Shown piece by piece: positions 8,715 through 26,275 of a stretch of DNA of 64,000 nucleotides. Every line of letters begins with the position of its first letter. Positions within the stretch are counted from its first letter, which is position 1. The position numbers were made by a program, and so were the translations under genes. The stretch comes from Spirochaetota bacterium (GTDB lineage Bacteria; Spirochaetota; Spirochaetia; CADAEX01): assembly GCA_009786125.1 (NCBI GenBank), contig WQTU01000139.1, forward strand, positions 8,483 through 72,482. Direction: 5' to 3'. The notes below the pieces were generated by a model, which saw only the letters and a list, made by a program, of their open reading frames with translations, had not been told where the DNA came from and searched no databases.

Positions 8715-8717
8715 TTG

Positions 8718-9788: not shown

Positions 9789-9816
9789 AGATTCACCTTT
9801 AATTTATTCCACTCAC

Positions 9817-10530
9817 TCATTGACTTTTCCCCCTCATAGAATATCTCACAATCCATTTGCCGGTTTTATCAGCACCAACACGCTCTATAACCCCTGATTT
9901 TTTCAGTTGAGCAACATTGTATTCCACTCTACGTTTAGTTATTTGAATGGTACCTGCAATTTTTTCAGCAGTAATTTCAGGGTTTTCAATCATTAAGGCA
10001 ACAATTTTCGCTTTTAATTCATCCAATCTATAATTTACACCACCATTTACACCACCATCTAATGCTTCTTCCCTTTTATTGTTATTTCTGATATGAAAGC
10101 AAATTGAAAACATAGTTGCCAAAATATCAAATTCGGGCTCAGGAAGGTTATCGGCAATGCAGCCGCTTTTCATTTTTTCAATACCTCTTCCCCAAGCTTC
10201 AATTTGCCCGGAACGAAAATAATATTTTCCTCTAAAGCTGATGGCATTCGGGTGCAGGCTTATCTTTATGACAATATAATCTAAGCTTTTTTCTGTGTAC
10301 AAATTGACATCAGCTAAAATCCCCATTGTTGAGCGAATTTTATTAGGAAGCTCTTCCAACAATTTTGATGCATTTGATATTCCGACAACTACACCACGAT
10401 TGTTTTTGCCAATTTCAAGAACACCTCCCTGTGCATTAGCAAAACCGCAAATCCACTTCAGGTATTCGTCGCGCCAAGTCTCTTTCCATTCAACAATCTG
10501 ATTTTCTCGGCTTTTAACTTTTTTATTCAT
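9817..10530 (-). CDS. AlbA_2 (Schlafen-like) domain protein with C-terminal winged-HTH
   Basis: N-terminal [27 protein letters not shown] is AlbA_2-like. A C-terminal HTH is present. There is a 4-nt overlap with hsdM. Confidence 0.65.
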
Positions 10531-12068
10531 ATTTTCACCCGTTTTAGGTTTTGCAAAATAGCTTTGTTAAGCCTTTCTTCTTCTTTTAATTGCGCCTCAA
10601 ATTCTGCCTTTAAGCTACTGAACCGTTCCTTAAAATCAAAGTCATCTTCTTCATCCGGAAGCCCAACATATCTGCCCGGTGTTAATACATAATCAAGTTC
10701 TTTGACACGCTCTATATTTGCAGAAAAACAAAACCCTTTTACATCTTCGTATTTTCCTTTAAACTTTCGCCATTCGTGATAAGTTGAAGCGATTTTTTTA
10801 ATATCATCTTGCGACAGCTCTTTTGTTCTGCGGTTAATCAAATGTCCTTCATTGCGTGCATCAATAAACAGAATCTCGTTAGTCCTGTTTCGACTACCTC
10901 CGTTAGCTTTATTGCGGGATAAAAACCACAAACAAGCAGGTATTTGGGTATTCAAAAAAAGCTTGCCGGGAAGATTAACAATACAGTCAACAAGCCGCGC
11001 TTCGATCAAAGCTTTGCGAATATCGCCCTCGCCCGAAGTTTTGGAAGTGAGCGAACCTTTTGCCAGAACAAATCCGGCAGTGCCGCTTGGGCTTAAATGA
11101 TAAAGAAAGTGCTGGATCCACGCATAGTTTGCATTCCCGACAGGGGGAACACCATACTTCCATCTGCCGTCTTTGCGAAGCAGATCCCCGGACCAGTCAC
11201 TGTCATTAAACGGCGGATTGGCAATAACAAAATCTGCCTTTAAATCTTTGTGCGCGTCATTCAAGAAAGAGCCTTCGTTATTCCACTTGACCTGCGAGCT
11301 GTCAATGCCGCGAATAGCAAGATTCATTTTTGCCAGGCGCCATGTTGTCTGATTACTTTCCTGACCAATAATGGATATATCGCTTATTTTACCTTTATGC
11401 TCTGCCACAAATTTTTCTGATTGCACAAACATACCGCCGGACCCGCAGCAAGGATCAAATACGCGGCCTTTGTATGGCTCAAGTATTTCTACCAGAAGTT
11501 CAACAACACTTCGGGGAGTATAGAACTGGCCGCCTTTTTTTCCTTCTGCAAGAGCGAATTCACCTAAAAAATATTCAAACACATGACCAAGCACATCTGC
11601 ACTTCGTGCTTTCGCGTTTCCAAGAGCAATATTTCCAATCAGGTCAATTAATCCGCCAAGGTTTGTGGGATCCAAATTGCCGCGCGCAAATACTTTTGGC
11701 AATACATCTTTCAGCGATGGATTATCTTTTTCGATTGCATCCATTGCATTATCTACATCTTTGCCTATGGTTGGCAATTTTGCCTTAGATTGCAGATATG
11801 TCCAGCGGGCAACTTCGGGAACAAAGAAAACATTTTCTGCTTTGTATTCATCTTTGTCTTCGGGGTCTGAGCCAGCGTATTCGCCTTTTTCGCTTTTTAG
11901 TTTTGCATAAAGTTCTTCGAAAGCATCTGAGATGTATTTTAAAAAAATCAGCCCGAGAACAACATGTTTGTATTCAGCAGCGTCGATATTTTTTCTTAGT
12001 TTGTCGGCAGATTTCCAGAGCTGCTTTTCGATTGGTTCGTTACTGATGTTTTCTTTAGTCTTTGCCAT
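10527..12068 (-). CDS. hsdM: Type I restriction-modification DNA methyltransferase subunit HsdM
   Basis: AdoMet motif [12 protein letters not shown] and catalytic motif IV NPPFN are present. The N-terminal HsdM_N-like region is present. Confidence 0.9.
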
Positions 12069-12104
12069 ATTTTATTCCTCTTTTGCCGGCGAAAAAATAT
12101 CGGG

Positions 12105-12250
12105 AAGTTTGCTCGCGACTCTCACTTATTCGGCGGATGTGCAAGCTCTGCAACATGGACGTCACTGCCTAGCAGTGGATCTGGCGCAGCGACACGGATG
12201 TCGCGATAAAGCGCCAGGCAGCTTGTCCGCGGTTCTTGCTCCGTCAGCGA
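12105..12250. repeat. GC-rich interspersed repeat, A-type module; inverted copy at ~53320-53440
   Basis: cgcgactctcacttattcggcggatgtgcaagctctgcaacatggacgt...ctggcgcagcgacacggatgtcgcgataaagcgccaggcagcttg is near-identical to the reverse complement of 53320-53440. The CTCACTTATTCGGCGGATG sub-module also occurs at 55673-55693 and, inverted, at 50140-50160. Confidence 0.8.
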
Positions 12251-13209
12251 ATGAGCCTGCTTAAAATACCTCTTTTCTTCCGCCAGTTGGAGTTAACTTT
12301 TACCCGTAAATCTATTATAACCGGATACGGAAAAATCGATTTTATTTCCCGTTTTGCAGCTTTTTTGATTGCGCGGATTTTCTCCCCGCCGCTGCCAATA
12401 ATTATTTTCTTTTGCGACTCACTCTCTGCAATCAAAAACGCCCGCACCCAAAGCTCCTCGCCGTGCTGACCCTGGTTCATTTCAATATCCGCGATTTCAA
12501 CATAAACACTGTGGGGGATTTCTTCTTTTGTTCTGTTTACTGCTTTTTCTCTTATTATCTCACTTATTCGAAAAGCAACATCCTGATCCGTATAAACATC
12601 ATCAGGATATAATTTCTCGCCTTCGGGCGCTTTCTCAAACATAACATCAAGAAGTTTATCCACGCCCTCGCCAGTCATTGCCGAAACATGGCAGATGGAA
12701 ATATCTTTAGCCGGCTCTTTTTTGCGAAGATTTTTTTTCAAAAAGTTCCCAAGGCTTTCGAGAAACTCCGGTATGTTTTTCTCCGCTACCGTAATAAGAT
12801 CAATTTTATTTAAAGCAACGATTACAACCGCGTTCAGCGCCGCAAGATATTCGAGTATTTTTTTCTCTTCTTCGCCGGGCTCCCGCGTGCAGTCAGTAAC
12901 GTAAAGAATTATTTCTGCATCATTAACAACAGTCTCGGTTACCTGCTTTAATTCGTTATTTATTTTTTTTTCTGAAATATGATATCCGGGAGTATCCTGA
13001 AAAATCAGCTGCCCCCGTTCTTCAGTTAAGATGCCGCGAATTACATTTCTTGTTGTCTGCGGAGTTGCAGACACAATGGAAACCTTATATCCGCATATCT
13101 TGTTCACGAGAGTCGATTTTCCGGAAGATGGCCTTCCTATAAGTGTAATAAAAGCTGATTTCACTATAAAATATCCTTTTTTGGCGACTAAACTGAAAAC
13201 AATCATCAA
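12244..13209 (-). CDS. era: GTPase Era
   Basis: G1 GRPSSGKSTL and G3 DTPG are present, with a C-terminal KH domain. The true start is probably GTG at 13164 (AAAGGA 9 nt upstream), which gives the canonical Era N-terminus. Confidence 0.9.
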   Translation of the reverse strand: MMIVFSLVAKKGYFIVKSAFITLIGRPSSGKSTLVNKICGYKVSIVSATPQTTRNVIRGILTEERGQLIFQDTPGYHISEKKINNELKQVTETVVNDAEIILYVTDCTREPGEEEKKILEYLAALNAVVIVALNKIDLITVAEKNIPEFLESLGNFLKKNLRKKEPAKDISICHVSAMTGEGVDKLLDVMFEKAPEGEKLYPDDVYTDQDVAFRISEIIREKAVNRTKEEIPHSVYVEIADIEMNQGQHGEELWVRAFLIAESESQKKIIIGSGGEKIRAIKKAAKREIKSIFPYPVIIDLRVKVNSNWRKKRGILSRLIR

Positions 13210-13431
13210 AAATGAAGAGAGTCACCGCTTGTCATTGCTTTCAATTATAATAGGCAGATTGTGTTGTTTTCAAGGTGTGGTTGTCTCAAAACAAAAATAT
13301 GTTTGTACGCTAGATAGTGCACAGAATCAATTAAAATTGCTAAATTTTATTTATCTATATTATCTTTTTTTTAAATTATCAGTATAATATAATTGCAGAT
13401 ATAGCAAACAAGCCCTAAAAAGAGGATAAAA

Positions 13432-14028
13432 ATGAAAAATATATTTAATGACAATGAAGAATGTGAACAAAATGAAAAAAAAGAAGACCCGATATCCGAA
13501 AAGTTTTTAAAGACGCGAACGATTCTTATCTCCGGGGAAATAAACAAGAAAAATGCAGAAAAAGTTGTTACGCAGATGCTGCTGCTCGAAGCAGACAATG
13601 ACAACCCCATTAAAATATTTATAGATTCTCCGGGCGGAGATGTCGATGCAGGGTATGCGATATTCGATATGGCGCGCTTTATCAAACCCGATGTATACAT
13701 GATAGGCATGGGGCTTGTTGCAAGCGCGGGCGCGCTCATACTTCTTGCAGCGCCAAAGGAACGGCGGCTTGGGCTTCCGAATTCGCATTATCTTATTCAT
13801 CAGCCCCTTAGCGGAATAAGGGGAGTTGCGACAGAAATTGAGATTCATGCAAAAGAGCTGGAAAAAACGCGGCAAAAAATCAATAAGCTGATATCTGATG
13901 AGACCGGCAAAAGTTTAAAGCAAGTTACAAAAGACACGGACAGGGATTTCTGGCTGAGTGCGGAAGAAGCTCTGGAGTATGGTCTTATTTCGAAGATAAT
14001 TACTAACAGAAAAGAGCTTGAAGTGTAA
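13432..14028 (+). CDS. clpP: ATP-dependent Clp protease proteolytic subunit ClpP
   Basis: ClpP signature regions are present: IDSPGGDVDAGYAIFD, catalytic Ser in LVASAGALIL, His in IHQP. Confidence 0.95.
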   Translation: MKNIFNDNEECEQNEKKEDPISEKFLKTRTILISGEINKKNAEKVVTQMLLLEADNDNPIKIFIDSPGGDVDAGYAIFDMARFIKPDVYMIGMGLVASAGALILLAAPKERRLGLPNSHYLIHQPLSGIRGVATEIEIHAKELEKTRQKINKLISDETGKSLKQVTKDTDRDFWLSAEEALEYGLISKIITNRKELEV

Positions 14029-14053
14029 TATTGCAGCATTTGCTTACCGTACA

Positions 14054-14560
14054 TTATAATATTACGCCCAACAAAATGAGGAATCCTGGAATAAATGTAC
14101 TTGCTATGCCATTCAAAATTAGAACATGAGGAGTAAGCCTATTAATAAATTTAATCCCCAGCATGATGGCAAAAAAACTTTGTGCCCATAAAATCCCCCA
14201 CATAGCCCAGAGGTAAACCATTATCCAGGGCGCGTTTGTAAAAAAAGCTTCTCCTGCAAATGTGAAAGAAACCAGAGATGCGAATAATCCGTACATTCCG
14301 AAAACTTTCCAGTTTTCGCTATTAAAGAAAATATGCGCTGCAATTATAAAATAATTAAGCGCAAACAGCCACATTGCTGCCGAAAAGCCGAATGTAACAT
14401 GACAGGTTGCAGTGGTAATTTGAAAAACCGCGTTTATTCCAATAATAACCCCGACCAGGGCATTTACCACTCCCCTTACTTTGTTGTCAATTGCCGTAAG
14501 AAAACTAACGCCATTCAATGATAAAGCAAATCCTGCAAATAGTAAGTTGACTCCTAGCAC
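14054..14560 (-). CDS. AmiS/UreI-family urea/amide channel
   Basis: Six-TM 168-aa protein. The N-terminus MLGVNLLFAGFALSLNGVSFLT and the WAMWGILWAQ segment resemble H. pylori UreI (recalled). Confidence 0.7.
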   Translation of the reverse strand: MLGVNLLFAGFALSLNGVSFLTAIDNKVRGVVNALVGVIIGINAVFQITTATCHVTFGFSAAMWLFALNYFIIAAHIFFNSENWKVFGMYGLFASLVSFTFAGEAFFTNAPWIMVYLWAMWGILWAQSFFAIMLGIKFINRLTPHVLILNGIASTFIPGFLILLGVIL

Positions 14561-14810
14561 AAAAACATCTCCTTTATGCCCTGTATATCAGATAACACAA
14601 ACTCAGCATAAAAGAGTGAAATCTCTTTGTCAAGACGCCGCATTGCCTCATGAAAAATGTTACCGAAAATAGTAAATGCCTCATTTAGAAAATGTTGCCC
14701 AAATTAAAATAAGGATGTCTTTAAGAGGGCATCATAATGGGGTTAGGCATGAAAGAAAAAAAGACTGTAACTAAGGAATACCAGCCCCGTTATAAAAAAG
14801 CACCAAAAAA

Positions 14811-15059
14811 ATGGTAATTCTGGACAAGTTCAGCAAGTCGACAGAACACCACAGAAAATCTGCTGTCCGCCTATTAAACAAACAGGCTATGGTCTATATA
14901 GACAGCAAGCAGGTAAAAATTAAGCCTGAGAAAAAGCGACCATCCAACCGAAAGGGAAACCGCATCTACACTGATAATGTCATCTTTTACAGCAAATCGC
15001 TCAATCAAACCGCATCATTACTATGTGGAATGAATAGCTTCGGTAACATTTCTAAATGA
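14811..15059 (+). CDS. Hypothetical small ORF (82 aa), possibly a gene remnant
   Basis: ORF only, in a 500-bp gap. No recognisable motif. Confidence 0.15.
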   Translation: MVILDKFSKSTEHHRKSAVRLLNKQAMVYIDSKQVKIKPEKKRPSNRKGNRIYTDNVIFYSKSLNQTASLLCGMNSFGNISK

Positions 15060-15069
15060 GGTATCTCGG

Positions 15070-15930
15070 CTAATACCTATAATATAGAACTCCAAATTGC
15101 TGTAATCGACCAATTCTGTCATGCGTGTTGGGGTGAGTTGAATACAGAGCTTTCAAAAATGATTCTTGTGGCTCACTTGTTCCGATGGCATCCAAACCTT
15201 TTGCTAATTCAAATCCATAACCTAACTCAGCGGCATATTTGTCGGCATCATATTCATTTTCCCGCGATGACCACATTAAAAACAGCATACAAAATTTTGT
15301 CCAAAGCCATATAATAGCAGCGAAAAACAATCCTATAATAACAGTACCAAAAGAACGACGTCTAATCCCGGAAATAAGAGAAAAAGCACCTATTATTGTG
15401 TATATTAGTTTTATGATTAGAAGTAATGTAGTTAGAATAAAATTGCCACCCCCGATTAAAAGCTGAATCTCATTATGACGATACGCTAAATGTGCTACTT
15501 CATGTGCTAAAATTCCTTGAATAACATCATCAGGTAGCTGAAAAAGCCCCTCGGTTACACAAATTGTCCTTCGCCCGATTGCGTAAGCGTTTGGTTCGGG
15601 GGAATAAATTACTTTCAAAACTATTTTATTTGTAAGCTTTGGTGTTTTTCTTTTTGCTTTATTGTATACAATTTCCAGCAATGGAATCATTCGAATTCTC
15701 ATGTCAACTCTTGTCATTTTTCTGGCTCCAGCCATTAAGCAGAGAATCCATTCGCCGATTGAAGAAAAAGCAATAAATATTGACAGGATATAAATAATGA
15801 CTATGACATACAGAGAATGAAAACCAATACTAGCGAAAAGTCCAATTATGATTAGCGCATTTAGGATAAAAAAAATAATTGTCCCAATACTTGATTTTTT
15901 AAATATATTTTTTGCTATATCCATACTCAT
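15070..15930 (-). CDS. M48-family (HtpX-like) membrane zinc metalloprotease
   Basis: HEVAH (HExxH) plus a downstream EYDADKYAAELG motif, with N-terminal and internal TM helices. It is the last gene of the operon, 16 nt after the FtsK-like gene. Confidence 0.75.
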   Translation of the reverse strand: MSMDIAKNIFKKSSIGTIIFFILNALIIIGLFASIGFHSLYVIVIIYILSIFIAFSSIGEWILCLMAGARKMTRVDMRIRMIPLLEIVYNKAKRKTPKLTNKIVLKVIYSPEPNAYAIGRRTICVTEGLFQLPDDVIQGILAHEVAHLAYRHNEIQLLIGGGNFILTTLLLIIKLIYTIIGAFSLISGIRRRSFGTVIIGLFFAAIIWLWTKFCMLFLMWSSRENEYDADKYAAELGYGFELAKGLDAIGTSEPQESFLKALYSTHPNTHDRIGRLQQFGVLYYRY

Positions 15931-15945: not shown

Positions 15946-18900
15946 CTAATCATGAATGGACAGACTTTTAATATATTTTTTTAATTCAGAATTATCGGGC
16001 ATGATATAAGGTTTATATTGGAAGATGTTTTTTACTCCATCAGAGTAATATACTGTATTATCTTTTAAACCAGCAACAGCAACGCCGTCAATGAGATTGT
16101 CAGCATCGCTGTTGCTCAAAGCAAAAATGATTCTTGCAGGAAATTTGGATAAAATGTTTTCACCATAATACATATTTTCCTTGACGCTTTGATATTCAAG
16201 CGAAGAAGTAATAAAATAAATTCCATAATTGGACCCATCGTCAATAAGCTGCAACAGTTTTTCTGAGATGGACAGGGATGGAGAGCCTGCATTTCCTGAT
16301 ACACCGAAATCAGCAAATTCATTTACGGACTTAGTGGCAATATTATCAATATATTCACTTTCATCTACGGACTCACCTTTAAACATTTTTTTTATAAGAT
16401 CAAGAAATTGCAGGTTCTTTATTACAACCAAAGATTGTTTATTATCCCCGCCCTTTTTTCTCTCTGAGTAAATTGTAAATAAATCGTTGATAATTTGAAT
16501 TATTTCTGTTCTGTTTTTTGCAGTCCTGAAACGTAAACTAAAACCGGTTAAACAATCATAAAATGCAGCCGAGATGCTTTCGCCTATTAAACTCTCTCCA
16601 TCTATACAGTAAACATTAGTATTTGTGTTCAGTAATGCTGAAAACATACAAAGGTTAGTAAGATTTTCAGCCATTTTTTCGTTTGCTCCACAAATTAATA
16701 AATTATGCCTTCTGCGCCGATCAAACTGCATAATAAATGGTGGTGCAACCTTTATGAGTGTCCCCATGTATATTTTTATAACGTTATCAGATGAAGAACC
16801 TGTTTTGCTTTGATTCAAATATTCAACAAGTGAAACCGTTCTGTTTCCTTCAAATATTTGCATCGTAGCTGGATAATCTGCATACTTTTCAGAAATAAGA
16901 GACAAATATTTTATTTGTGCTTTTTTTGAGCAATATGCGGCACGGAATCCTATATTATTTGATTCCATGTATTCCAAATTCATTACGGCTGTACCGATAG
17001 GGCCTTTCATCATTTCAATGATTTTATCATCGTTTCGATTTCCGAATAAATACCGTATATCATCCTCACCGCATTTTAAACCAATACGGATACGCATTTG
17101 TTCAATAATGCCATGCGATAGTGTCAGTTCACTTATAATTTTTGTAGTCTGCGTTGCCATCAAAAGATGAATGCCAAAGGCCCGACCTTCGGTGACGATC
17201 CGCTTAGTCAGTTCAGAGCAATTTCTGGCTACTTTGCGATTTGCAGAATCATTAAAAAGAATTTGAAACTCGTCCATGACAACTAAAATACGTGGCAGAG
17301 GATTTCCTGTGCCTTTTATATAATCAAAAAGGCTTGATTGTCCAGAATTTTTAAACAAGTCTCCACGGCGCAGCATTTCGCTGACTAGATTTTCCAATAT
17401 ACTCTCGCCAAATTCCTGCATGGCATCAAGCGCTAATAATTGAATATGCGGCAAATTGAAAGATTCATAAATCTTAAACTCTGTTCCGCTTTTAAAATCC
17501 ATCAAATACAAATGTAACTCATCTGGGCTATGGGATAACATACCACTCATAATTATTGTGTGCAGTAAAGTTGATTTGCCGGAGCCCGTAGCACCGGCGA
17601 TTATCCCATGATGTGATGAACCTTCTCCCAATATCAAGTCTACAGGGTTTTCGCCGTCGCCAATGCCCACGGTAATAGATAGTCTTTTTGCTGTTGAAGA
17701 AGAAAAAAGCGATGGACTTATAATGTCTTCAAGGGATAGACCTTTTTGTTTTAGGTTGGTAATAGCTTCTATGTATTGATTTATAAAATCGGAAATCCTG
17801 TTCTTTGATAGCTCAGGTGCTACATCAACTTGTAATCCAAAAGGTTGAAGAATATATTTTTTTTCAACATATTCCAACAAAGAACAGTGTTTTTTTATCT
17901 CTTCAAGATGTTCATCGATACTCTCATACTTTGAAAATAAGATATTTGGATTATGGCATATAACTGCGTAAATTCCGCATTTGCTGCCATTATTAAGAAT
18001 ATTTATTAACAACTCTATACTTCGGTTGTCAAAATTGCGGGGAAAATCAAATATAATCAACATAATAATAGGTTCGATACGATTAGGCGTGTTACTGTTG
18101 TATTCAATAATATTGGCAAAGCGATTGCCGAGCTTCTCCTGGATAAACTCGTCAATATATCTGTTTAATTTTTGCAGCGTACCTATCATAGCGTCTTGTG
18201 TGGTATAAATTTGTCCGTCAAAAATATCAGGAAGATTTTGGCGAAAATCCAAAAAAGGCGTTATGCTGTTACCCCGGCGTTCAGCATCAAATACGCAAAA
18301 TTTTATTTTTGAAACCGGAACAGAAGATAGAAAGCTCCACATTAAACCGTGTATAAATTTTATTACATGCTGCTGGACTGCTTCCGGGCAAATAATTAAT
18401 AGACTACTTTTTTCTTTAAGGTTAAAAATTGCCGGCAAAATAAAAGTTTGTGAATTTTGTGTTGTCAATTCAGTTTTTATTCTTGCAATCGTATTGTTAT
18501 CTGCTACTAAATCCAAAGGACAGGATAAATACCCTACTGAGATTTCCGCGGGGAAACTGTCTGTAACTGACGGAACTACACCAAAAGTATTGTTATACCT
18601 GTCAAGAGTATTTTTTATTGCACTTATTGCAAATTGAACTTTATCGGCATTTTCACTGTCTATCAGTTCACAGACTATAGAACCTAATAAAGCAATATTG
18701 CCGTGAAAACTACTGTAAGTGAATAAATAATTTTTGATATATCTTGATAAATCATTTCCTGCAAGGGCTTCATTATATGTTACCCGAAGATTGTAGTAGA
18801 GGAACATATCAACCGCTTGTTGGATGATAATACTGTTTTTTACATGGTAAGGCGGCAAGGCATTTCCTGACTGTACTCTATATACAATTACGGTATAAAC

Positions 18901-20226
18901 ACCAAGATTTTTTCCATTTTCAATAATGTTATTTATCGATGCTACATTTTTGTCTCCCAATGCTTCGGGAGAGTCGAAAACAATTAAAACCTTTATATCT
19001 GGTGTTGCCACTGTATTATTGCAAATACTCAGTTTTTCTAATGTTTCCCTTATTTCCTCATTGGATGTTTTTACTCCTCCATTAAACAGTTCCGGTATTT
19101 TTTTGATAAAATCCATATATGAAGACACATTTTTTCCCTGACCTTCTGAATCTATTATGCTGAAAGTCAAATGTGTAACCGGGGCAAAAGCAATAAAACT
19201 CTGTATTATGGAGCTAACAAGTTGGTTTTTAAGATTGCTATTTACCGTATATTTTACAAGTAAATTCAAATTATCGCTTAAAGAAAATACAAGAGGAAAC
19301 CTAAGTAATTTACTTTGTGAAATAATGGCCGCACATTTATCTTTAATAAGTGAAAACAAAATCTTGGAACTCACAAATAATTCTAATGGATAGTCAATAT
19401 TCCCTAAGACAATAGTATCATCCCATGCACAATAGCTTGATGTTATTCCTGTAAAGTTACTAATATAGCGTTCATTAATTGTTTTTAATGAACCTAACAG
19501 ACTATCAGGTAAAATCTTATCTAACTGTTCACAAATCTCATCAGCCAATATTTCTACGTTGCTTTCATACCTTGATTTTATTTTAGACAGTTCTGCTTGA
19601 TACTTTGATTCTATTTCCTCAGTTTTTTTGGCATGAGCATCTTTCTCAGCTTGTGTTGAATCATTGACCAGTTCAGCTATTGTTTTTTTGATTTCTTCCA
19701 TTAAATTTTCTAGTCTTATTTTCAGAACAATTAAATCTTCATAGTCTTGTTTTCGTTGTTTTGAAAAGGCAAAGTTTATACCATCAAAAAGAGCAGGTAA
19801 TTTCTCTTTTGAATATTTTAATGAAAGTGATTCAAATTGTTTTTTAACATTTTCTAAGGCTAAAAAAATGTCAGGATCATCAATGGTGGTTATTTCGGCT
19901 TTTTTTCCCAGCTCCTCTGTTTTAAGATCTCGCGCTTTAACATAATATTTATCAGCATTTGCCAGAGAAGTATCCAATGCCAATACTTCTTTATATATTT
20001 TTTCAGCATTGTTCTTTAATTCGGCACCTTTTTTTCTAGTAACATTAGCACTACTATCATATTGCCCAGCGGCATTTGACATGAATTGATTATATTGTTC
20101 TTCCAAGCTTTTTTTTGAGTTTTCAAAATTATTCCATAATTGCTGAATTCTCTGATCAGATTGTTCTGCAAAGGAATTAATGTTATTAATGAGTCTCAAA
20201 ACTGTTTGATATGTAATTTTACTCAT
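15946..20226 (-). CDS. Giant FtsK/SpoIIIE-family multi-domain ATPase with N-terminal coiled coil (EssC/EccC-like, no TM or FHA)
   Basis: One intact FtsK-type P-loop domain (HHGIIAGATGSGKSTLLHTII; Walker B RILVVMDEFQ) is flanked by three degenerate FtsK-like domains (VLIVFDSPE, IIMLIIFDFPRNFDN, SLVVIKNLQFLD). About 250 aa of N-terminal coiled coil. No hydrophobic TM segment. Confidence 0.7.
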   Translation of the reverse strand: MSKITYQTVLRLINNINSFAEQSDQRIQQLWNNFENSKKSLEEQYNQFMSNAAGQYDSSANVTRKKGAELKNNAEKIYKEVLALDTSLANADKYYVKARDLKTEELGKKAEITTIDDPDIFLALENVKKQFESLSLKYSKEKLPALFDGINFAFSKQRKQDYEDLIVLKIRLENLMEEIKKTIAELVNDSTQAEKDAHAKKTEEIESKYQAELSKIKSRYESNVEILADEICEQLDKILPDSLLGSLKTINERYISNFTGITSSYCAWDDTIVLGNIDYPLELFVSSKILFSLIKDKCAAIISQSKLLRFPLVFSLSDNLNLLVKYTVNSNLKNQLVSSIIQSFIAFAPVTHLTFSIIDSEGQGKNVSSYMDFIKKIPELFNGGVKTSNEEIRETLEKLSICNNTVATPDIKVLIVFDSPEALGDKNVASINNIIENGKNLGVYTVIVYRVQSGNALPPYHVKNSIIIQQAVDMFLYYNLRVTYNEALAGNDLSRYIKNYLFTYSSFHGNIALLGSIVCELIDSENADKVQFAISAIKNTLDRYNNTFGVVPSVTDSFPAEISVGYLSCPLDLVADNNTIARIKTELTTQNSQTFILPAIFNLKEKSSLLIICPEAVQQHVIKFIHGLMWSFLSSVPVSKIKFCVFDAERRGNSITPFLDFRQNLPDIFDGQIYTTQDAMIGTLQKLNRYIDEFIQEKLGNRFANIIEYNSNTPNRIEPIIMLIIFDFPRNFDNRSIELLINILNNGSKCGIYAVICHNPNILFSKYESIDEHLEEIKKHCSLLEYVEKKYILQPFGLQVDVAPELSKNRISDFINQYIEAITNLKQKGLSLEDIISPSLFSSSTAKRLSITVGIGDGENPVDLILGEGSSHHGIIAGATGSGKSTLLHTIIMSGMLSHSPDELHLYLMDFKSGTEFKIYESFNLPHIQLLALDAMQEFGESILENLVSEMLRRGDLFKNSGQSSLFDYIKGTGNPLPRILVVMDEFQILFNDSANRKVARNCSELTKRIVTEGRAFGIHLLMATQTTKIISELTLSHGIIEQMRIRIGLKCGEDDIRYLFGNRNDDKIIEMMKGPIGTAVMNLEYMESNNIGFRAAYCSKKAQIKYLSLISEKYADYPATMQIFEGNRTVSLVEYLNQSKTGSSSDNVIKIYMGTLIKVAPPFIMQFDRRRRHNLLICGANEKMAENLTNLCMFSALLNTNTNVYCIDGESLIGESISAAFYDCLTGFSLRFRTAKNRTEIIQIINDLFTIYSERKKGGDNKQSLVVIKNLQFLDLIKKMFKGESVDESEYIDNIATKSVNEFADFGVSGNAGSPSLSISEKLLQLIDDGSNYGIYFITSSLEYQSVKENMYYGENILSKFPARIIFALSNSDADNLIDGVAVAGLKDNTVYYSDGVKNIFQYKPYIMPDNSELKKYIKSLSIHD

Positions 20227-20254: not shown

Positions 20255-21379
20255 TTACTTCTCATACTTGCATTTTTTGCCGCATTTTTTTGAAAAACCA
20301 ACTTTTAGTGAAGTCGTAACCTGAAGGGGATAGCTAAATATCTCAACCATTTCGCCGCCGATTTTCGGATTACTTGTATTGCTTACAAGCGTATATTGCG
20401 TAAGATTATTCAATAAACGCGGGATATAACCCTCATTGTTTGCATTAAAAATATCGAGTATCAGCTTGATACCGATTGAAGTAGCAAAATTTATATCGAC
20501 TGATATACCAGGCTCAAACTTTACTCCTTCGGTATTTTCTTGATTTGAGTATACATGATGATTGGCCTCGGCTCTTGACGAAAGGCCGCTGCCATCGCCT
20601 AAAGCGCACTCATAACATGGCAAGCCTTTTCCATACAGGTGATAAAAAATCTCACCAGCAAAAGCCCTTTCCCAAAATCCTATAGAAACAAAAGAGGATT
20701 GATAGTATATGCTGATTCTATTTGTGTACACGTCCGCAATGCGGTTGTCAGCACAGCCGATAAAAACTGTGTTTCCAGCTACACAAAACGAATCCATAGT
20801 TTCTTTTGGCAAATTCTGTACGATGCCTTCAAAAGTAATTACCTCTGCACTTGGATTAATATTAAGAATCTTTCTTTTGAGAGCATATACTTTAAAATCA
20901 CCAACATCTTCTATTCCGCATTGATGGCGGCAAATATTATGATATTCTACTATATCTGCATCAACCAAAATAAAATGCTTTACTCCAGCCCGTGCCAACT
21001 CCAGGGCAACCAGGCTGCCGACAGAGCCGCAGCCTAATATTATTGCTTTTTTTTGGCACATTATATCAGATTCTAATATCCCCTTGTTACGTGAGAATAT
21101 ATTTTGATAGAGGCTGTATATTTCACATTTTATTTTTTTTCCATAACTATAAAAATCTATACCTGCACTTGTAATAACTCCACACAGCTTGTTCTTGTTA
21201 CAATTACTGCCTTTCGGTAACACTTTTCCTAGAAGCTCTCCTTTACTTTCCAGTTCGGGAGGAAATACATTATATATGGCAGATTCTTTGTAATACCTGC
21301 CATATATATTCCTTTCATTTTGAGTACTTGCCTGTATGTCTGATATGAATACCGTCTTTTCCATTTGTGGTTTTTTCAT
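20255..21379 (-). CDS. ThiF/MoeB/E1-like adenylyltransferase (ubiquitin-activating-enzyme-like)
   Basis: Rossmann nucleotide loop KKAIILGCGSVGSLVALELARAGVKHFILVDADIVEYHNICRHQ is present, with downstream CxxC (CYEC) and conserved Cys candidates. Confidence 0.8.
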   Translation of the reverse strand: MKKPQMEKTVFISDIQASTQNERNIYGRYYKESAIYNVFPPELESKGELLGKVLPKGSNCNKNKLCGVITSAGIDFYSYGKKIKCEIYSLYQNIFSRNKGILESDIMCQKKAIILGCGSVGSLVALELARAGVKHFILVDADIVEYHNICRHQCGIEDVGDFKVYALKRKILNINPSAEVITFEGIVQNLPKETMDSFCVAGNTVFIGCADNRIADVYTNRISIYYQSSFVSIGFWERAFAGEIFYHLYGKGLPCYECALGDGSGLSSRAEANHHVYSNQENTEGVKFEPGISVDINFATSIGIKLILDIFNANNEGYIPRLLNNLTQYTLVSNTSNPKIGGEMVEIFSYPLQVTTSLKVGFSKKCGKKCKYEK

Positions 21380-21381: not shown

Positions 21382-22368
21382 CTATAAATCCTTGTTTTCA
21401 TTTCCTATACCGAACGCACGCAGTAAACCAGACTTAAATGTGACATCTGCGGGGTTAAAGTCTGTTAATAAATTGGTGAATAGCCCTGGGGTATATAAAT
21501 AGCAATCATCGTCATGAGAAAAAACAATCTGCTTCTTATGTGCAACATATATAAAGTGAATCATTGTAACAATGTTACTTGACCCTTTATGAGATAAGCT
21601 TAAAACTCCCTTGTTTTGTTCAATTTTCAAAGCCAATTTTCGATTTTCAGAAAAATATGTTATATCGTCCAGCAAAGAATCAATTAAAAAATCTCGATAT
21701 TTTTCAGCCTCTTCTGGCTTGTAATCATCTTTAGACAGTGTAGTTTTCTGTAATTTTCCTTTGATGCTAACAAGTAAACGTAAAAAATCTATTTCCGGTT
21801 TGTCAAAGGTTTTATTTCCGGAATATAATTTGTCAGCGTAACTATTTATATATCCAAGTGATTTTTCCGCATTTCTTAACGCAAGTAAATGTTCAGGGAT
21901 TAAGTTATCACCCACTTTATAAGCGATTTTAGTATATTTAAGGGGCCATGCTACATGATATGGCGTAATGCGGAACTTTGGATCAATATTAACCAAAACA
22001 GAAACAGCGCCATTGGCAGACATTTTAGCATAATCAGAGTTAGTTCCATCGTCTGTGGAAGAAAACTCGTCAAAAGAACCCGGATGCCTGTGCCATAGCC
22101 CAATTAAAGTCAATTTTGCTTGATATATCTGTACTAATTTGTTTATTAAATGTTCTGTATATTTTTTATCGTACTCGAAGTATGCAACTTGAAAAATCGC
22201 CTTTGGGCCTGGGTCTATTGCTTCTATGACATACCAATTCCCATTCTCAAAGCAGCCTAAAAATATTCCGCCGGTTTCGGTTTTTATTTTTTCTGAGGTT
22301 TCCGAAATAACCGCCGTGTATGCGCGATTAGAAAAAATCACCTGCATAATTTTCCCCCGTTGATACAT
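21382..22368 (-). CDS. JAB/MPN (JAMM) metallo-isopeptidase-like protein with ~200-aa C-terminal extension
   Basis: Perfect JAMM motif H-x-H-x7-S-x2-D in LIGLWHRHPGSFDEFSSTDD, with an upstream conserved Glu (VIEAID). Confidence 0.8.
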   Translation of the reverse strand: MYQRGKIMQVIFSNRAYTAVISETSEKIKTETGGIFLGCFENGNWYVIEAIDPGPKAIFQVAYFEYDKKYTEHLINKLVQIYQAKLTLIGLWHRHPGSFDEFSSTDDGTNSDYAKMSANGAVSVLVNIDPKFRITPYHVAWPLKYTKIAYKVGDNLIPEHLLALRNAEKSLGYINSYADKLYSGNKTFDKPEIDFLRLLVSIKGKLQKTTLSKDDYKPEEAEKYRDFLIDSLLDDITYFSENRKLALKIEQNKGVLSLSHKGSSNIVTMIHFIYVAHKKQIVFSHDDDCYLYTPGLFTNLLTDFNPADVTFKSGLLRAFGIGNENKDL

Positions 22369-22431: not shown

Positions 22432-22674
22432 TCAAATAAATCGATCTCGATTCGCTAAACAAAAATTGACAAATGCATCTTTTTTAACAACAAGCTTCAC
22501 TGGAAATGGTAGCCCCTGGTAAACTAAAGAGAATATTGCTTCCACTGCTTTGTCATTTTCAGCTGCCGCTAAAGCAGCAGGCCCTACTTTCTCCTGAAAA
22601 ATCTTTTGTATCTGAGGCCAATGCTCCTCAATAGTTTTCTCGATCTGCTTATTCAGCACATTTCCTAAATCCAT
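22432..22674 (-). CDS. Hypothetical small protein (80 aa) between E2-like and JAB genes
   Basis: ORF with tight packing. Mostly helical with a C-terminal beta-like segment. No C-terminal Gly. Confidence 0.35.
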   Translation of the reverse strand: MDLGNVLNKQIEKTIEEHWPQIQKIFQEKVGPAALAAAENDKAVEAIFSLVYQGLPFPVKLVVKKDAFVNFCLANRDRFI

Positions 22675-22692: not shown

Positions 22693-23208
22693 TTAGTACA
22701 CACCTTCTATTGCTACTTCGTCACTTACCTCTCCGTTGATCCACATTTCACACAACATTATCCATTTGCACGCCCAACTTAGAGAGGAGGCGGCTGATGT
22801 AGAACGAGTCTGCGATGCTTTAAAATATTTGGGGTCGGCAGTACATATAAAATACTCTTCGTTACGTCCGAAGTTATCGCGGTAAATATGCGGAAGCCCC
22901 AAGCCCAAACCCTTTTCAGGCTTAATCGGTAATGTTTTCGCTATATCAACGAGACGCGGTTTAACGGGCAAAATTTGAATTGAGCCGCCATACATACCTT
23001 CTTCTGCCTGGGGATGGGTATTTTTATAAATCAACATCAAATCCCAAACCATTCCGCCTTTTCCGGTTGGCTGAACCTTTCCGCGCCAATATAGCCTTCC
23101 CGAACCATCTTCGAGTTTATAGAGCTTAAACGATGGGAAATATTTCCCCATTGCCATCTGTTCAGCCTCTAACAAATCAGGGTCACTCTGATACCAATAA
23201 AATCCCAT
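22693..23208 (-). CDS. UBC/E2-like ubiquitin-conjugating-enzyme-fold protein
   Basis: YWRGKVQPTGKGGMVWDLMLIYKNTHP resembles the E2 W.G.I.GP..TPYEGG.F.L.I.FP..YP layout. LPHIYRDNFGRNEEYFICTAD resembles HPNIY..G.ICLD, with a candidate catalytic Cys. A strong RBS (AAGGAGG) precedes the start. Confidence 0.55.
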   Translation of the reverse strand: MGFYWYQSDPDLLEAEQMAMGKYFPSFKLYKLEDGSGRLYWRGKVQPTGKGGMVWDLMLIYKNTHPQAEEGMYGGSIQILPVKPRLVDIAKTLPIKPEKGLGLGLPHIYRDNFGRNEEYFICTADPKYFKASQTRSTSAASSLSWACKWIMLCEMWINGEVSDEVAIEGVY

Positions 23209-23209: not shown

Positions 23210-23392
23210 TTAACCCCTCCTTGCCAATTTTCCGTCAGGCACCTGAATGGCTGTGTGCCCCTGTTCTTCTGCTTCGCTTTGAAATTCTACTTCACCGGAA
23301 GGGGTGACAACTACATCTTCTCCTCCGCGCAAGGCTGCTGCTAACGCACGGCGTCTTGCTGCGACAGCATCCTCATCCGCATTATTATTCAT
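23210..23392 (-). CDS. Small low-complexity protein (60 aa) ending in Gly; candidate Pup/Ubl-like modifier
   Basis: MNNNADEDAVAARRRALAAALRGG...GKLARRG-stop sits 1 nt upstream of the E2-like start. It is GC-richer than its surroundings. The C-terminal codons overlap the E2 RBS. Confidence 0.3.
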   Translation of the reverse strand: MNNNADEDAVAARRRALAAALRGGEDVVVTPSGEVEFQSEAEEQGHTAIQVPDGKLARRG

Positions 23393-23449: not shown

Positions 23450-23680
23450 CTAGTTGTTGTTACCAGAAGTAACTATTACATCCGAATTATCATACTTTGC
23501 AGCTATTAAATCATTACGTCTTTTTGTAATAATAGCGGTATTAACTTCTGTTATGCGAATGCAATCAGTGAGAACATCAGAAGTAATACCCTCTTTTTTA
23601 TATGACAAGGAATCCTCTTTGATGTTTCCGATGATTTTTACAAGCAGCGACTTTTTCTTTTTTTTGATAACACCACCCAT
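23450..23680 (-). CDS. Small protein (76 aa), candidate beta-grasp/YukD-like ubiquitin-like protein
   Basis: Ubiquitin-sized. Hydrophobic periodicity is consistent with beta strands (SLLVKIIGNI, VLTDCIRITEV, SDVIVTSG). It ends ..TSGNNN. It lies 12 nt after the upstream gene. Confidence 0.3.
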   Translation of the reverse strand: MGGVIKKKKKSLLVKIIGNIKEDSLSYKKEGITSDVLTDCIRITEVNTAIITKRRNDLIAAKYDNSDVIVTSGNNN

Positions 23681-23692: not shown

Positions 23693-24622
23693 TTATGCTG
23701 TCGCTCTTTCTCTAGGTTTTTTATCAAAATTTCTGATAATTTCACCATTAGCAGAAATAGTAACCACACTCTCGCGTAATCCTGCTTGAGCCGCTTTCTC
23801 GCCATTCTTAAGAACAGATTGAGCGTATGTATTGTCAAATAATTCGCTGCCTTGCTCGGCCAGCTTAGCCAAATCAACGCCCTTATTATTTTCCATAGCT
23901 AAGGTATATGCAAAATAGTCTCTCATTCGCCGAAGAGCATTTTCATCGCTTGCAATAATCTCATCACATTTCTTTATCTGCCTAAACCGCTTGATGAAAC
24001 GATATATGGTAATAATTGGACTTACAACAGCTAAAAAAAACCCAGAAATAATTCCCAAAAGAAAACCTCCCCCTATATCGCCATCGCGCCCCTTCGCACC
24101 TCCAAAGAAAGCACCTATCATTAATTTAACTATAGTTCCTAATGAAGCGCCAATGAAAACCAAAAAAATAGTGGCAAACACCATATCCTCGGGGAAATCT
24201 GAACCAGCAGTCAAACCTAAGCCAACAATCAAACCTAAAACAGCACCAACAACCATCCATATACGTTCTTTTTTTACTTGCTTCCTGAAAGCCGTAACAT
24301 TATCAATATTTTCCTGTACTAAAATAGCGGTGCATTTATAACACAAAGCAGTTCCAGCATAGTCACCGATACTTACGCCATATGTATCATAACAATCTCG
24401 ACAAATACCTGTTCCACATCCCCTGCATAATGCTGCTGCTTGTTTTGACGGATGGTGACCACACTCAATACCTGCTTCCAATACACACTCGCGGCATAAA
24501 CCTGCATATTTATTACCAGGTTTGCTAAAAAGATTAACACAATTTCTACAAATCCCCTTTCCGCATCTTTTGCATTGCGCTACTGCTTGTTCGTCTTCAT
24601 GAAAATAACATCCAATTGCCAT
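23693..24622 (-). CDS. Membrane protein with N-terminal tandem zinc-ribbon/B-box-like Cys clusters
   Basis: Cys clusters C-x2-H-x8-C-x2-C-x4-C-x2-C and C-x2-C-x7-C-HH-x9-C-x2-C-x4-C-x2-C are followed by 3-4 Gly-rich TM helices and a ~110-aa C-terminal domain. Confidence 0.6.
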   Translation of the reverse strand: MAIGCYFHEDEQAVAQCKRCGKGICRNCVNLFSKPGNKYAGLCRECVLEAGIECGHHPSKQAAALCRGCGTGICRDCYDTYGVSIGDYAGTALCYKCTAILVQENIDNVTAFRKQVKKERIWMVVGAVLGLIVGLGLTAGSDFPEDMVFATIFLVFIGASLGTIVKLMIGAFFGGAKGRDGDIGGGFLLGIISGFFLAVVSPIITIYRFIKRFRQIKKCDEIIASDENALRRMRDYFAYTLAMENNKGVDLAKLAEQGSELFDNTYAQSVLKNGEKAAQAGLRESVVTISANGEIIRNFDKKPRERATA

Positions 24623-24702: not shown

Positions 24703-24975
24703 CTAAAATTTAACACGGCTGTATGAATCCAGTGATTCTGCCAATCTGTTCAGTTTTGGTTGCGCTGCTTCAAGCGGACCAATAGGCGATTCAATTAAAG
24801 CCGCAATTTTCACCATTAGATTACGGTATTGCTCTCCCTGATAGTCATTCCATTCAGCCGACTGTTGTGATGTCTGTCGGACATCTCTTACGGCTTTTGC
24901 CAGCTCTTTAATGATCGCACCAATATCAGCATTAATTTTACGAATTGCCTCTGAATTTGCTTTGACATTTGACAC
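24703..24975 (-). CDS. WXG100-like small helical-hairpin protein (paralog 1)
   Basis: 90 aa. Central ..AEWNDYQGEQYRNL.. Starts xxVxxxSEAIRK like its paralogs. Confidence 0.45.
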   Translation of the reverse strand: MSNVKANSEAIRKINADIGAIIKELAKAVRDVRQTSQQSAEWNDYQGEQYRNLMVKIAALIESPIGPLEAAQPKLNRLAESLDSYSRVKF

Positions 24976-24989: not shown

Positions 24990-25265
24990 CTATAAGTTGA
25001 CTTTTTCGTATTCTTCAAGCGTTTTGTAGATTTCAACCAGTTTCTCAAGGATCTCAAATAAAGCATCCTTTGGTTCCCGCAATTTATCTGTACACTCTTT
25101 CACGATAATTCCGAGCTGATTATATTTTTGATCTCTCCATCCTTGCCCTGCATCTTTGTAGCTTTGGTCCAACCTTAATGTTGACTTGCTTAAGTCCTGT
25201 ATAACTTCATTGCATATTTTTTCCGCTTTTCTTATAGCTTCTTTTCCGACTGAAACCTGTGCCAT
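24990..25265 (-). CDS. WXG100-like small helical-hairpin protein (paralog 2)
   Basis: 91 aa. Central ..GQGWRDQKYNQL.. N-terminal KEAIRKAEKI parallels paralog 1. Confidence 0.45.
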   Translation of the reverse strand: MAQVSVGKEAIRKAEKICNEVIQDLSKSTLRLDQSYKDAGQGWRDQKYNQLGIIVKECTDKLREPKDALFEILEKLVEIYKTLEEYEKVNL

Positions 25266-25286: not shown

Positions 25287-26036
25287 CTAGAAATTCTCAC
25301 TTAAATACTTATCAACTGCAGCAATACATTTCTCAATATTGCCTACATTTTGTTCCGTGCCTGAAACTGCCTGTGTTTCAAATGATTTTGAAGCAGATAA
25401 CATTGTGTTTATATTGTCATTCATTTTTGCAAGGGAAGCATTCATTCTTTCCTGCTTATTTCTCAATCTGTCTAAAAACCTTTCAGTTGTGCGAAGTTCA
25501 TCTTCCTTTTTCGCTTTTTCGGCTTGTATCACATGTACTTTTTGTTGTAATTGTAAACCGCACTCTTTTAATTTGAATAATTCATTTTCTGAACTTCTGA
25601 TTTCAGACTCTGTTTGATATAATTGATTCCTTCTATCATCGATTTGCTTTTGGATTTTCTCTTTTACCTCGCCTTCTGCTCTTGCAGCGGCTTGTTCCAT
25701 TTCCGAAATTTGCTTCTTAATGTGCATAGCGTTTGTCTGATTAGCCGTTAAATCGTTTTGTGCTGATACCAGTTTTTGTTCTGTCGATTTTATTTCGTTA
25801 TTCATTTGATTTATTGTATCGGCAAGTCTATTTATTTCTGCTTTGTACTGATTAATTCTATTTGTTGTCTCCTCAATTTTTTGCTTGATTTTCTGCATTT
25901 CTAAGTCTGCGGATTTGGAAACAACAGATATTTGTTGCCCTATTCTTGTTGAAAAGCCCGAAATATCAATATAGTAATCATTAAGTGCGGCTTTTACTTT
26001 TGTAAGAGCGTCTTTTGAAACGCTAATTTCGGACAT
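25287..26036 (-). CDS. Coiled-coil protein (249 aa) with N-terminal WXG/LXG-like helical region
   Basis: Extended heptad-like Q/E/K-rich sequence. The N-terminus MSEISVSKDALTKVKAALNDYY resembles its small neighbours. Confidence 0.4.
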   Translation of the reverse strand: MSEISVSKDALTKVKAALNDYYIDISGFSTRIGQQISVVSKSADLEMQKIKQKIEETTNRINQYKAEINRLADTINQMNNEIKSTEQKLVSAQNDLTANQTNAMHIKKQISEMEQAAARAEGEVKEKIQKQIDDRRNQLYQTESEIRSSENELFKLKECGLQLQQKVHVIQAEKAKKEDELRTTERFLDRLRNKQERMNASLAKMNDNINTMLSASKSFETQAVSGTEQNVGNIEKCIAAVDKYLSENF

Positions 26037-26038: not shown

Positions 26039-26275
26039 TTAAACTTCCTCTGCCGCTATGGCAAAAAATTTATCTATTCCGGAACAAGCTCTTTCGCCGC
26101 TCTCTATAACGGTTTTTGATGTTTTTGCCAACTCGCCAATCCGTGCCTGCAGCGAAGCATAATTGCCATCGTTCCATATATCCCCAACTCTGTTGATTTT
26201 TTCACTTACTTTTCCGGTTGACAGTTTGAAAGCATCAAGCTCCTTTTTTATAGCTGAAGCGTGGTTAATTACCAT
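26039..26275 (-). CDS. WXG100-like small helical-hairpin protein (paralog 3)
   Basis: 78 aa. Central ..GDIWNDGNYASLQARIGEL.. (W-N-D-G). Confidence 0.45.
   Translation of the reverse strand: MVINHASAIKKELDAFKLSTGKVSEKINRVGDIWNDGNYASLQARIGELAKTSKTVIESGERACSGIDKFFAIAAEEV

Follow-up and report, generated by a model that had tools for sequence, protein, structure and literature searches.

A predicted soluble four-domain FtsK/EccC-type ATPase encoded with WXG100-like proteins and a putative ubiquitin-like conjugation set

The stretch of DNA analysed here, 64,000 nucleotides from a Spirochaetota bacterium (assembly GCA_009786125.1, contig WQTU01000139.1, positions 8,483 to 72,482; hereafter the window), carries an operon that includes the gene for a 1426-residue ATPase of the FtsK/EccC family (15946..20226, (−)), the subject of this report. 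All genes of the operon lie on the (−) strand at short or overlapping intergenic distances, and they follow a conserved order: a 78-residue WXG100-like protein (o78), a 249-residue coiled-coil protein (cc249), two further WXG100-like proteins of 91 and 90 residues (o91 and o90), a Zn-ribbon/transmembrane protein, a small candidate tag, E2-, JAB- and E1-like enzymes, the ATPase, toxin-like cargo where present, and an M48 metalloprotease. The window locus has the full machinery and no toxin cargo. An NCBI protein from a metagenome-assembled genome (MAG), P0001, is identical to the window ATPase and is annotated merely as "FtsK/SpoIIIE domain-containing protein".

A Pfam scan of the ATPase detects a single FtsK_SpoIIIE domain (residues 870-1027, E-value (E) 1.1e-25), and the NCBIfam profiles EccCa (E 1.8e-34), EssC (E 2.7e-26, residues 871-1297) and EccCb match it in part, at scores 4-8 fold below the curated equivalog cut-offs (TIGR03924, TIGR03928 and TIGR03925: 119.5 versus 509, 91.5 versus 778 and 63.2 versus 347 bits). 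The best solved relative is the cytoplasmic region of T. curvata EccC (PDB 4nh0, E 1.4e-30), whose first ATPase domain aligns best. EccC and EssC are the closest relatives of the protein in both sequence and structure; the EssC/EccC-like architecture proposed in an earlier note on this DNA is borne out by these profiles, by 4nh0 and by Foldseek alignments to EccC/EssC. A DNA translocase or conjugative coupling protein of a mobile element (FtsK/SpoIIIE, TraB or TcpA type) would account for the Pfam match, for a structural likeness to the FtsK motor and TcpA and for the occurrence of distant relatives on plasmids; however, with the FtsK equivalog model the protein reaches only 30.8 of the 1566 bits required, Pfam finds neither FtsK_4TM nor Ftsk_gamma in the ATPase, the best sequence matches are to EccC/EssC and not to FtsK, and none of the examined loci contains relaxase, type IV secretion system or replication genes. 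In addition, a tblastn search of 72,556 plasmids yielded no close relative of the ATPase, the best match reaching 28% identity over 39% of the query, and a role in DNA translocation is very improbable.

The chain comprises an N-terminal helical region followed by four domains, here termed Da (residues 255-565; 18532..19464, (−)), Db (566-835; 17722..18531, (−)), Dc (836-1105; 16912..17721, (−)) and Dd (1106-1426; 15949..16911, (−)). Dc, which is EccC D1-like in Pfam, NCBIfam, PDB and Foldseek comparisons, holds both nucleotide-binding motifs found by motif scan and homolog alignment: the pattern GxxxxGK[ST] occurs once in the protein (GATGSGKS, residues 878-885), as part of the Walker A GATGSGKST (residues 878-886; 17569..17595, (−)), and hhhhDE also once, as the Walker B LVVMDE (residues 981-986; 17269..17286, (−)). 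G878-T886 and D985/E986 are invariant across 32 homologs, in all of which the Walker A is conserved and correspondingly placed; homolog L024 shows an extra loose-pattern match at residue 968. Da and Db retain hhhhD-like strands (LIVFDS at residue 413, continuing as LIVFDSP, and LIIFDF at residue 721, continuing as LIIFDFP) in which D418/P420 and D727/F728/P729 are invariant among the homologs, and both are devoid of a P-loop; in Dd, CGANEKMAE replaces the P-loop, and there is neither GxxxxGK[ST] nor a clear hhhhD. The third domain alone is predicted from sequence to be competent for ATP binding and hydrolysis.

Profile comparison with hhalign relates Da to Db (probability 99.9%, E 9e-37), so that the two are a tandem duplication of one degenerate domain, and returns no match of Da/Db to Dc or Dd within the ATPase family; because profiles were silent on these pairs, structures had to be compared. 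In Foldseek, both halves of a Da/Db model align serially to EssC and to EccC D2-D3 (E 5e-15, ~640 columns, TM-score 0.30), the low TM-score indicating that the inter-domain geometry differs from that of the crystal structures. An AlphaFold2 model of residues 836-1426 (predicted local distance difference test (pLDDT) 80) aligns over 590-674 columns to two- and three-domain structures of EccC/EssC (E 7e-24, query TM-score 0.64), and Dd, which also falls within the EssC profile, therefore represents a fourth FtsK-type fold. All four domains are FtsK-type folds in these models, in the order two dead, one active, one dead, with the upstream pair placed like the "DUF" pseudo-ATPase of EccC and Dd as a dead D2/D3-like module. 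The tandem array of four FtsK-like domains described in the earlier note, of which Pfam detects one, thus agrees with the models, as do the P-loop folds of its degenerate regions, which Foldseek aligns to EccC/EssC, and its single intact Walker A/B pair in the third domain. Its statement that the other three domains lack a P-loop but keep the hhhhD-like strand holds for the P-loop in all three and for the strand in Da and Db, not in Dd; its comparison with the regulatory D2/D3 domains of type VII secretion system (T7SS) ATPases fits the dead state of these domains but is imprecise, because two of them precede the active, D1-like one and because EccC D2 and D3 keep their P-loops and reportedly bind ATP, as Rosenberg et al. 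are said to have found in 2015.

Seen against EccC and EssC, the protein shares a chain of four P-loop-like modules (DUF-D1-D2-D3) with a D1-like catalytic module, but has two pseudo-ATPase modules before the active one where EccC has one, and a single module after it that has lost the P-loop retained in EccC D2/D3. A subgroup of 1750-1770-residue homologs (P0003-P0008, P0010, P0011, P0013, P0014, P0019 and P0021; for example at 10001-15316 of locus L005) bears a ~330-residue AAA+ module inside Da, at the equivalent of residue ~400, which matches SpoVK (E 3e-79), CbbX (E 1e-65) and EccA (E 5e-64). This unusual domain-in-domain insertion parallels the separate EccA, the accessory ATPase of T7SSa.

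Lack of a membrane anchor was judged from 19-residue Kyte-Doolittle hydropathy, whose peak in the ATPase, 1.64, lies within a helix-strand of Da modelled at pLDDT ~90; peaks are 1.36-1.81 in the 32 homologs versus 2.37 in the Zn-ribbon protein and 2.63 in the M48 protease of the operon. Pfam matches no FHA domain in the ATPase at E<=1, and canonical FHA-bearing relatives (P0034 and P0035) are distant matches only. The start codon is not mis-called, because the upstream E1 gene stops 29 nt before it. It is scarcely credible that the protein is an ordinary membrane-embedded EssC with overlooked transmembrane helices or FHA domains or a misplaced start: the hydropathy peak does fall just over the classical threshold of 1.6, but in part of a confidently modelled P-loop domain; 32 of 32 homologs share the N-terminus and lack hydrophobic segments; and FHA is absent, as is, given the end of the E1 gene, any space for a longer N-terminus. 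A missed anchor and DNA translocation are both effectively excluded, and the ATPase is predicted to be soluble. The earlier note was right to find neither FHA domains nor hydrophobic transmembrane helices, and right to regard a classical membrane-embedded secretion ATPase as unlikely.

Where EccC/EssC have transmembrane helices or FHA domains, the window ATPase has a conserved, coiled-coil-like helical domain of 250 residues (residues 1-250; 19477..20226, (−)), a candidate receptor for a partner or for the tag. The ~250-residue coiled coil announced in the earlier note was its least secure element: a crude heptad score is raised to 0.3-0.6 over residues 1-224, versus about 0-0.2 elsewhere, and Pro and Gly are scarce there; yet the presence of invariant motifs makes it a specific helical domain and not a generic coiled coil. 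These motifs, DKYYVKTKxKK and KYSxDILPxLINGLNYLFSSQRKKDYEELIVLKNTV, are rich in Lys and Arg, and the invariant residues are A74, D92, K93, K97, K137, Y138, S155, R158, K159, Y162, L165, I166, L168 and E178. Profile searches of PDB and Pfam with the region return nothing beyond weak matches to coiled-coil proteins and no family. As the earlier note suggested for its coiled coil, the domain may plausibly serve in oligomerisation or in binding a partner.

The operon is widely distributed. A scan centred on the E2 gene, with one genome per GTDB species, gave 37 loci, and a synteny script found the same gene order in essentially all of them as well as in metagenome loci, in at least four phyla; the metagenomic contexts of five ATPase homologs match it too. 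Besides the window Spirochaete, hosts are termite-gut MAGs of Defluviitaleaceae, Phycisphaerales and Fibrobacteria, and Clostridia and Bacilli of rabbit, goat and human gut; carriers among gut commensals include Ruminococcus and Christensenellaceae, and the operon is present in the isolates Lachnospiraceae MGB1 and Faecalibacterium prausnitzii ATCC 27768. Two of its products are predicted membrane proteins. The one encoded at 23693..24622 (−) combines a Zn-ribbon, suggested by weak B-box/Zn-finger Pfam matches, a transmembrane segment and a conserved C-terminal domain; it is found in essentially all loci and is a candidate membrane partner of the ATPase. The other (15070..15930, (−)) is an HtpX-like M48 membrane Zn-metalloprotease with a HEVAH motif and ~4 transmembrane segments (Pfam M48 E 2.7e-23), which matches NCBIfam HtpX models under their cut-offs and has H143, E144, H147 and E226 invariant (HExxH plus E226). 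Its gene is syntenic in most loci and is absent from L022-L024, L027 and L043, which are otherwise complete and run several kb past the ATPase gene.

The operon begins with a group of WXG100-like proteins: the 78-residue product of the first conserved gene (26039..26275, (−); synteny and hidden Markov models (HMMs)); a 249-residue protein with a WXG-like N-terminus and a long coiled coil (25287..26036, (−); coiled-coil Pfam/NCBIfam matches and synteny); the 91-residue protein (24990..25265, (−); synteny and HMMs); and the 90-residue protein (24703..24975, (−)), which matches Pfam WXG100 at E 0.008 and whose L004 ortholog has precomputed WXG100 matches. All four are mutually related by HMM cross-matches, the o91 HMM matching the N-terminus of the 249-residue protein at E 1e-4. 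The 91-residue protein is moreover the prototype on which the toxin cargo models its N-terminal domain. In 21 loci, including most Firmicute ones, one to three genes directly after that of the ATPase encode proteins of 200-418 residues, the first ~95 of which are homologous to it, with W43, E85 and Y86 (nearly) invariant; 8 of 25 such proteins match Pfam WXG100 (best E 3.5e-6). Their C-termini are unrelated, with matches to Colicin-DNase/WHH, Endonuclea_NS_2, ADPrib_exo_Tox (an ADP-ribosyltransferase, E 2.6e-32), Gln_amidase (a glutamine deamidase), Peptidase_C39_2 and a HELGHMIDH zincin family, and between many cargo genes and the M48 gene there is an interval of 270-890 nt, enough for an immunity gene. 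A WXG trafficking domain joined to a variable toxin is the polymorphic-toxin layout given for T7SS substrates in Zhang et al. 2012 (PMC3482391). Like EccC/EssC, the ATPase family is encoded beside WXG100-family genes and WXG-fused toxins, and the ATPase is probably the motor of an unnamed type VII-like (WXG100/FtsK) system for protein export or toxin delivery. In the window, HMMs of the WXG-like families run over the 64 kb match the four operon paralogs and no WXG-fused toxin.

Between the Zn-ribbon and ATPase genes lie the components of a putative ubiquitin-like conjugation pathway, which, like the M48 protease, the earlier note on the ATPase did not take into account. The E1-like adenylating enzyme (20255..21379, (−)) has a ThiF fold (Pfam E 9.5e-25; PADLOC E1-E2 E 1.8e-25) in which GCGSVG, corresponding to the Rossmann GxGxxG, the catalytic Asp D211 and four Cys are invariant; in the PDB, its nearest relative is MccB (E 5e-11), ahead of Cap2 (E 9e-9). 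MccB grips a short peptide, microcin C7, with an N-terminal clamp and adenylates its C-terminus. Both MccB and the E1 have ~100 residues in front of the ThiF fold, and by analogy this extension of the E1 could be a peptide clamp for a small tag without a beta-grasp fold. The JAB/JAMM isopeptidase (21382..22368, (−); Pfam Prok-JAB E 2.5e-7, PADLOC JAB E 1.7e-12) has a complete JAMM motif (E ... HxHx7Sx2D), with E31, H93, H95, S103 and D106 invariant, and its best PDB matches are weak and of Rpn11 type. It occurs in a short form (172-207 residues) in the Bacilli/Clostridia subgroup L012-L018 and elsewhere, the window included, in a long one (314-358 residues), whose C-terminal extension of ~190 residues matches no family; the presence of a tail on the tag does not correlate with the length of JAB. 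The E2-like conjugating enzyme (22693..23208, (−); PADLOC E2 E 9.6e-9) has 91 invariant positions, including H107 and C122 of its His...Cys motif; its orthologs bear a weak precomputed Pfam E2-CBASS match, and a profile search of the PDB gave none.

The 60-residue product of the gene at 23210..23392 (−) is the candidate conjugatable tag. In an alignment of 36 loci its core ends in ...VPDGKLA, followed in the window by RRG. The family, of 129 database clusters and ~55 residues, has neither a Pfam domain nor a name; it opens with a conserved amphipathic helix, AARRRALAEALR, and the core reads ...AARRRALAEALRxGxxVVVTPxGEVE...IQVPDGKLA, with GKLA in 112 of 120 sequences. In these 112, the tail after the Ala is 0 residues long in 22, 3 in 58, 4 in 24 and 2 or 5-7 in 8, and is hypervariable in sequence (RRG, GRG, NWRG and KED are examples). 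At ~55 residues the tag is below canonical beta-grasp length, and no beta-grasp or CD-NTase homology is detectable. Ubiquitin, NEDD8, SUMO and Atg8 are made as precursors whose C-terminus is exposed by a peptidase, and by analogy the C-terminal pattern of the tag looks like the signature of such a modifier precursor. Because of this pattern and of the adjacent JAB, E1 and E2 genes, we infer that the tag is the conjugated species. Together, the four proteins are predicted to form a complete ubiquitin-like conjugation set with intact catalytic residues.

In a model of the export system that would accommodate these components, the ATPase would hexamerise and use its N-terminal domain to dock on the membrane through the Zn-ribbon transmembrane protein, the M48 protease or both; its degenerate domains would recognise WXG100-type substrates, as EccC D3 does EsxB, and its single active domain would power their export. 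JAB would trim the tag precursor, E1 would adenylate the exposed Ala and E2 would move the tag onto a lysine of a system component or substrate, for which the DKYYVKTKxKK patch of the ATPase and the WxDKKYK motif of the cargo are candidates; conjugation might then gate or target transport and be reversed by JAB. That covalent tagging is a built-in targeting or gating signal of a new export or toxin-delivery machine ("ubiquitin-directed secretion"), made up of a ~55-residue JAB-processed modifier, E1/E2 and a soluble motor docked on a Zn-ribbon protein and an HtpX-like protease, is a tentative proposal, possible rather than probable.

Several points weigh against export. The ATPase has no membrane anchor, and the operon contains no recognisable homolog of EssA, EssB, EsaA, EccB, EccD or EccE, nor an obvious channel protein. 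Several hosts (the Spirochaete, Fibrobacteria and Phycisphaerales) are diderm, and a T7SS-like machine would reach only their periplasm. No o91-like cargo open reading frame (ORF) lies between the ATPase and M48 genes in the window, L001, L012 or L014-L017, and in L004, L013, L030 and L003 cargo genes lie too close to M48 for an immunity gene to fit in between. The E2 assignment is made by HMM matches (E about 1e-8) and the conserved His...Cys motif, not by structure. To our knowledge, every experimentally studied bacterial E1/E2/JAB operon acts in phage defence, not in secretion.

This last circumstance speaks, as all characterised operons of the kind are defensive, for an anti-phage abortive-infection system, in which E1, E2, JAB and tag would mark phage or host proteins as in type II cyclic-oligonucleotide-based anti-phage signalling systems (CBASS) or Bil, the ATPase would, like the FtsK-type domains in SspH/DptH, serve as sensor or as motor, and the WXG-fused toxins would be intracellular suicide effectors. 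E1, E2 and JAB match PADLOC models of CBASS type, and two of them, E1 and JAB, the NCBIfam anti-phage model "6A-MBL cap2_3" as well; but the PADLOC matches in the window are generic, at the level of individual domains, with none to a system. The system is present on two IMG/VR contigs. In the window, a defence island is found 3-4 kb from the operon, but in other genomes housekeeping genes flank it instead; and an immunity-sized gap is missing after some cargo genes but present after the toxin in many loci. Four WXG100 paralogs and WXG100-toxin fusions are, according to PMC3482391, the hallmark of exported polymorphic toxins. A defensive role, the main rival to export, seems unlikely on this evidence.

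The same gene set might instead suggest a proteasome-like, tag-directed unfoldase/protease, in which the N-terminal domain binds the tag in the way that the coiled coil of Mpa captures Pup, the motor feeds the substrate to M48 at the membrane, JAB recycles the tag like Rpn11 and the WXG-like proteins are adaptors or regulated substrates. In every complete locus a tag, E1/E2 and JAB do accompany a protease and a ring-type ATPase whose N-domain is helical, the weak best PDB matches of JAB are of Rpn11 type, the tag opens with a conserved amphipathic helix and M48, from what is known of the HtpX family, would have its active site on the cytoplasmic face. Yet EccC-type motors of the FtsK/HerA clade are known as exporters and DNA pumps, not as partners of proteases, nothing points to contact between the ATPase and M48, whose gene is missing from the five otherwise complete loci named above, and the toxin/immunity cassettes would be left unexplained. 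This reading is decidedly improbable.

A search of 1.84 billion representative proteins with Da and Db (E<=1e-3) gave 1460 matches, in which ~30 representatives of ~1450 residues match both domains and hundreds of 1100-1350 residues match Db only. Distant relatives (P0031, P0032 and proteins of Caballeronia and Helicobacter plasmids) have one central Walker A, no transmembrane segment and WXG100 or toxin/immunity neighbours without E1, E2 or JAB; that of the Helicobacter plasmid adjoins genes for an 89-residue protein, an HNH toxin and SMI1/KNR4 immunity. On plasmid pSBC2-5 of Caballeronia sp. SBC2 (L046, 21861-37537), a 927-residue, three-domain soluble relative is encoded beside a WXG100 gene, with an accessory set of two VWA proteins, a PP2C phosphatase, a Ser/Thr kinase, a DUF1887 CARF protein and a large AAA protein.

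Such proteins recall a footnote of Zhang et al. 2012 (PMC3482391) on soluble YueA-like ATPases of "mobile versions of T7SS", with three FtsK/HerA domains of which the middle one alone is active and with linkage to solo WXG proteins. The likeness extends to solubility, to one active FtsK domain between dead ones, to WXG proteins and toxins, and to occurrence outside Firmicutes and Actinobacteria, the window family being found also in Spirochaetes, Phycisphaerales and Fibrobacteria. Db-Dc-Dd of the window ATPase fit the class, and the family adds the duplicated dead domain Da in front; it thereby differs from relatives of the Zhang type in having four domains, not three, as well as its own conserved N-terminal helical domain, at 24-28% identity, and, unlike them, it is always flanked by E1, E2, JAB and the GKLA tag and, in most loci, by M48, none of which is mentioned in that paper. 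Among soluble T7SS-type motors, a class that has hardly been described, the ATPase is a new variant with four domains.

On the conjugation side, the operon shares with type II CBASS (Cap2/Cap3), Bil and Bub a ThiF-type E1, a predicted E2 with a His...Cys motif, a JAMM peptidase with the full motif and a candidate modifier with a small C-terminal residue, here Ala, exposed directly or after removal of a tail. It differs from them in that its candidate modifier has ~55 residues, its E1 is nearest to the peptide-adenylating MccB, and its partners are an FtsK-type motor, WXG100 proteins and M48, in place of a module for nucleotide signalling or for targeting phage assembly. Garrett et al. 2024 (PMC11217815) present T7SSb-T7SSj variants with a ubiquitin-like protein (Ubl) of YukD/EsaB type. 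Like the present system, these unite a small ubiquitin-related component with WXG100 proteins and an ATPase of T7SS type, but they have membrane-bound ATPases, a Ubl without a conjugatable C-terminus and no E1, E2 or deubiquitinase (DUB); the words ThiF, JAB and M48 are absent from PMC11217815. A literature search that included a 2006 Aravind paper, PMC3482391, PMC11217815 and the Bub/Ubl preprint PMC11601603 from the Corbett lab returned no description of FtsK/WXG systems linked with E1/E2/JAB. The obligate coupling of a soluble T7SS-type motor to a module for ubiquitin-like conjugation, with its novel mini-modifier, seems not to have been described before.

The defining component of type VII secretion is the membrane-embedded EccC/EssC ATPase, and nearly every T7SS variant has a ubiquitin-fold protein of enigmatic role that is not conjugated. 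In the present system, the motor is of T7SS type but has lost the anchor and gained an E1-E2-DUB set that looks catalytically intact, with a modifier that looks processable. If conjugation controls export, this would be a new principle for bacterial secretion and for the delivery of polymorphic toxins in gut communities, and "ubiquitin-directed secretion", if true, would offer a functional precedent for the non-conjugated ubiquitin-like modules (YukD, EsaB and EccD) of canonical T7SS; if the system serves defence or proteolysis instead, it would be a new effector arm of bacterial ubiquitin-like pathways. Either way, it provides a tractable set of small proteins for probing ubiquitin-like modules beside FtsK-type motors.

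Three other small ORFs at the window locus were considered as Ubl and rejected. A 76-residue ORF (23450..23680, (−)) ending in TSGNNN has BLAST matches only in L005 and L009 and, being confined to the termite-gut subgroup, is not part of the core; it belongs to a set of basic ORFs of ~76-80 residues that start with MGxVIKKKKKS and lie just upstream of the tag gene (in the window, at 4492-4731 of L005 and at 6898-7137 of L001), the L001 copy, of 79 residues, having been recognised at this position by reading the sequences, not by BLAST. An 80-residue ORF between E2 and JAB (22432-22674, (−)) and a 71-residue ORF at the operon edge (26265-26480, (−)) have no homolog in ~40 orthologous loci and may be lineage-specific or non-coding; the E2-JAB gap that holds the former measures 325 nt in the window and is far smaller in those metagenomic loci whose gene calls were examined, for example ~60 nt in L001 and 2 nt in L004.

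The two IMG/VR contigs (UViG_3300029114_000157, L048, and UViG_3300029579_000156, L049) are classed as viral and carry a Faecalibacterium-type operon (E2 identity 73%); upstream of the tag, L048 has genes other than the usual WXG/Zn-ribbon set. The defence island of the window spans 510-12068 (−) and comprises a type I restriction-modification system (hsdR, 510-3740; hsdS, 7442-8542; hsdM, 10527-12068), a Gabija-like pair of an OLD-family ATPase/TOPRIM protein (5820-7445) and a UvrD-like helicase (4703-5830), RhuM (8718-9788) and a Schlafen/AlbA_2 protein with a winged helix-turn-helix (9817-10530), all on the (−) strand.

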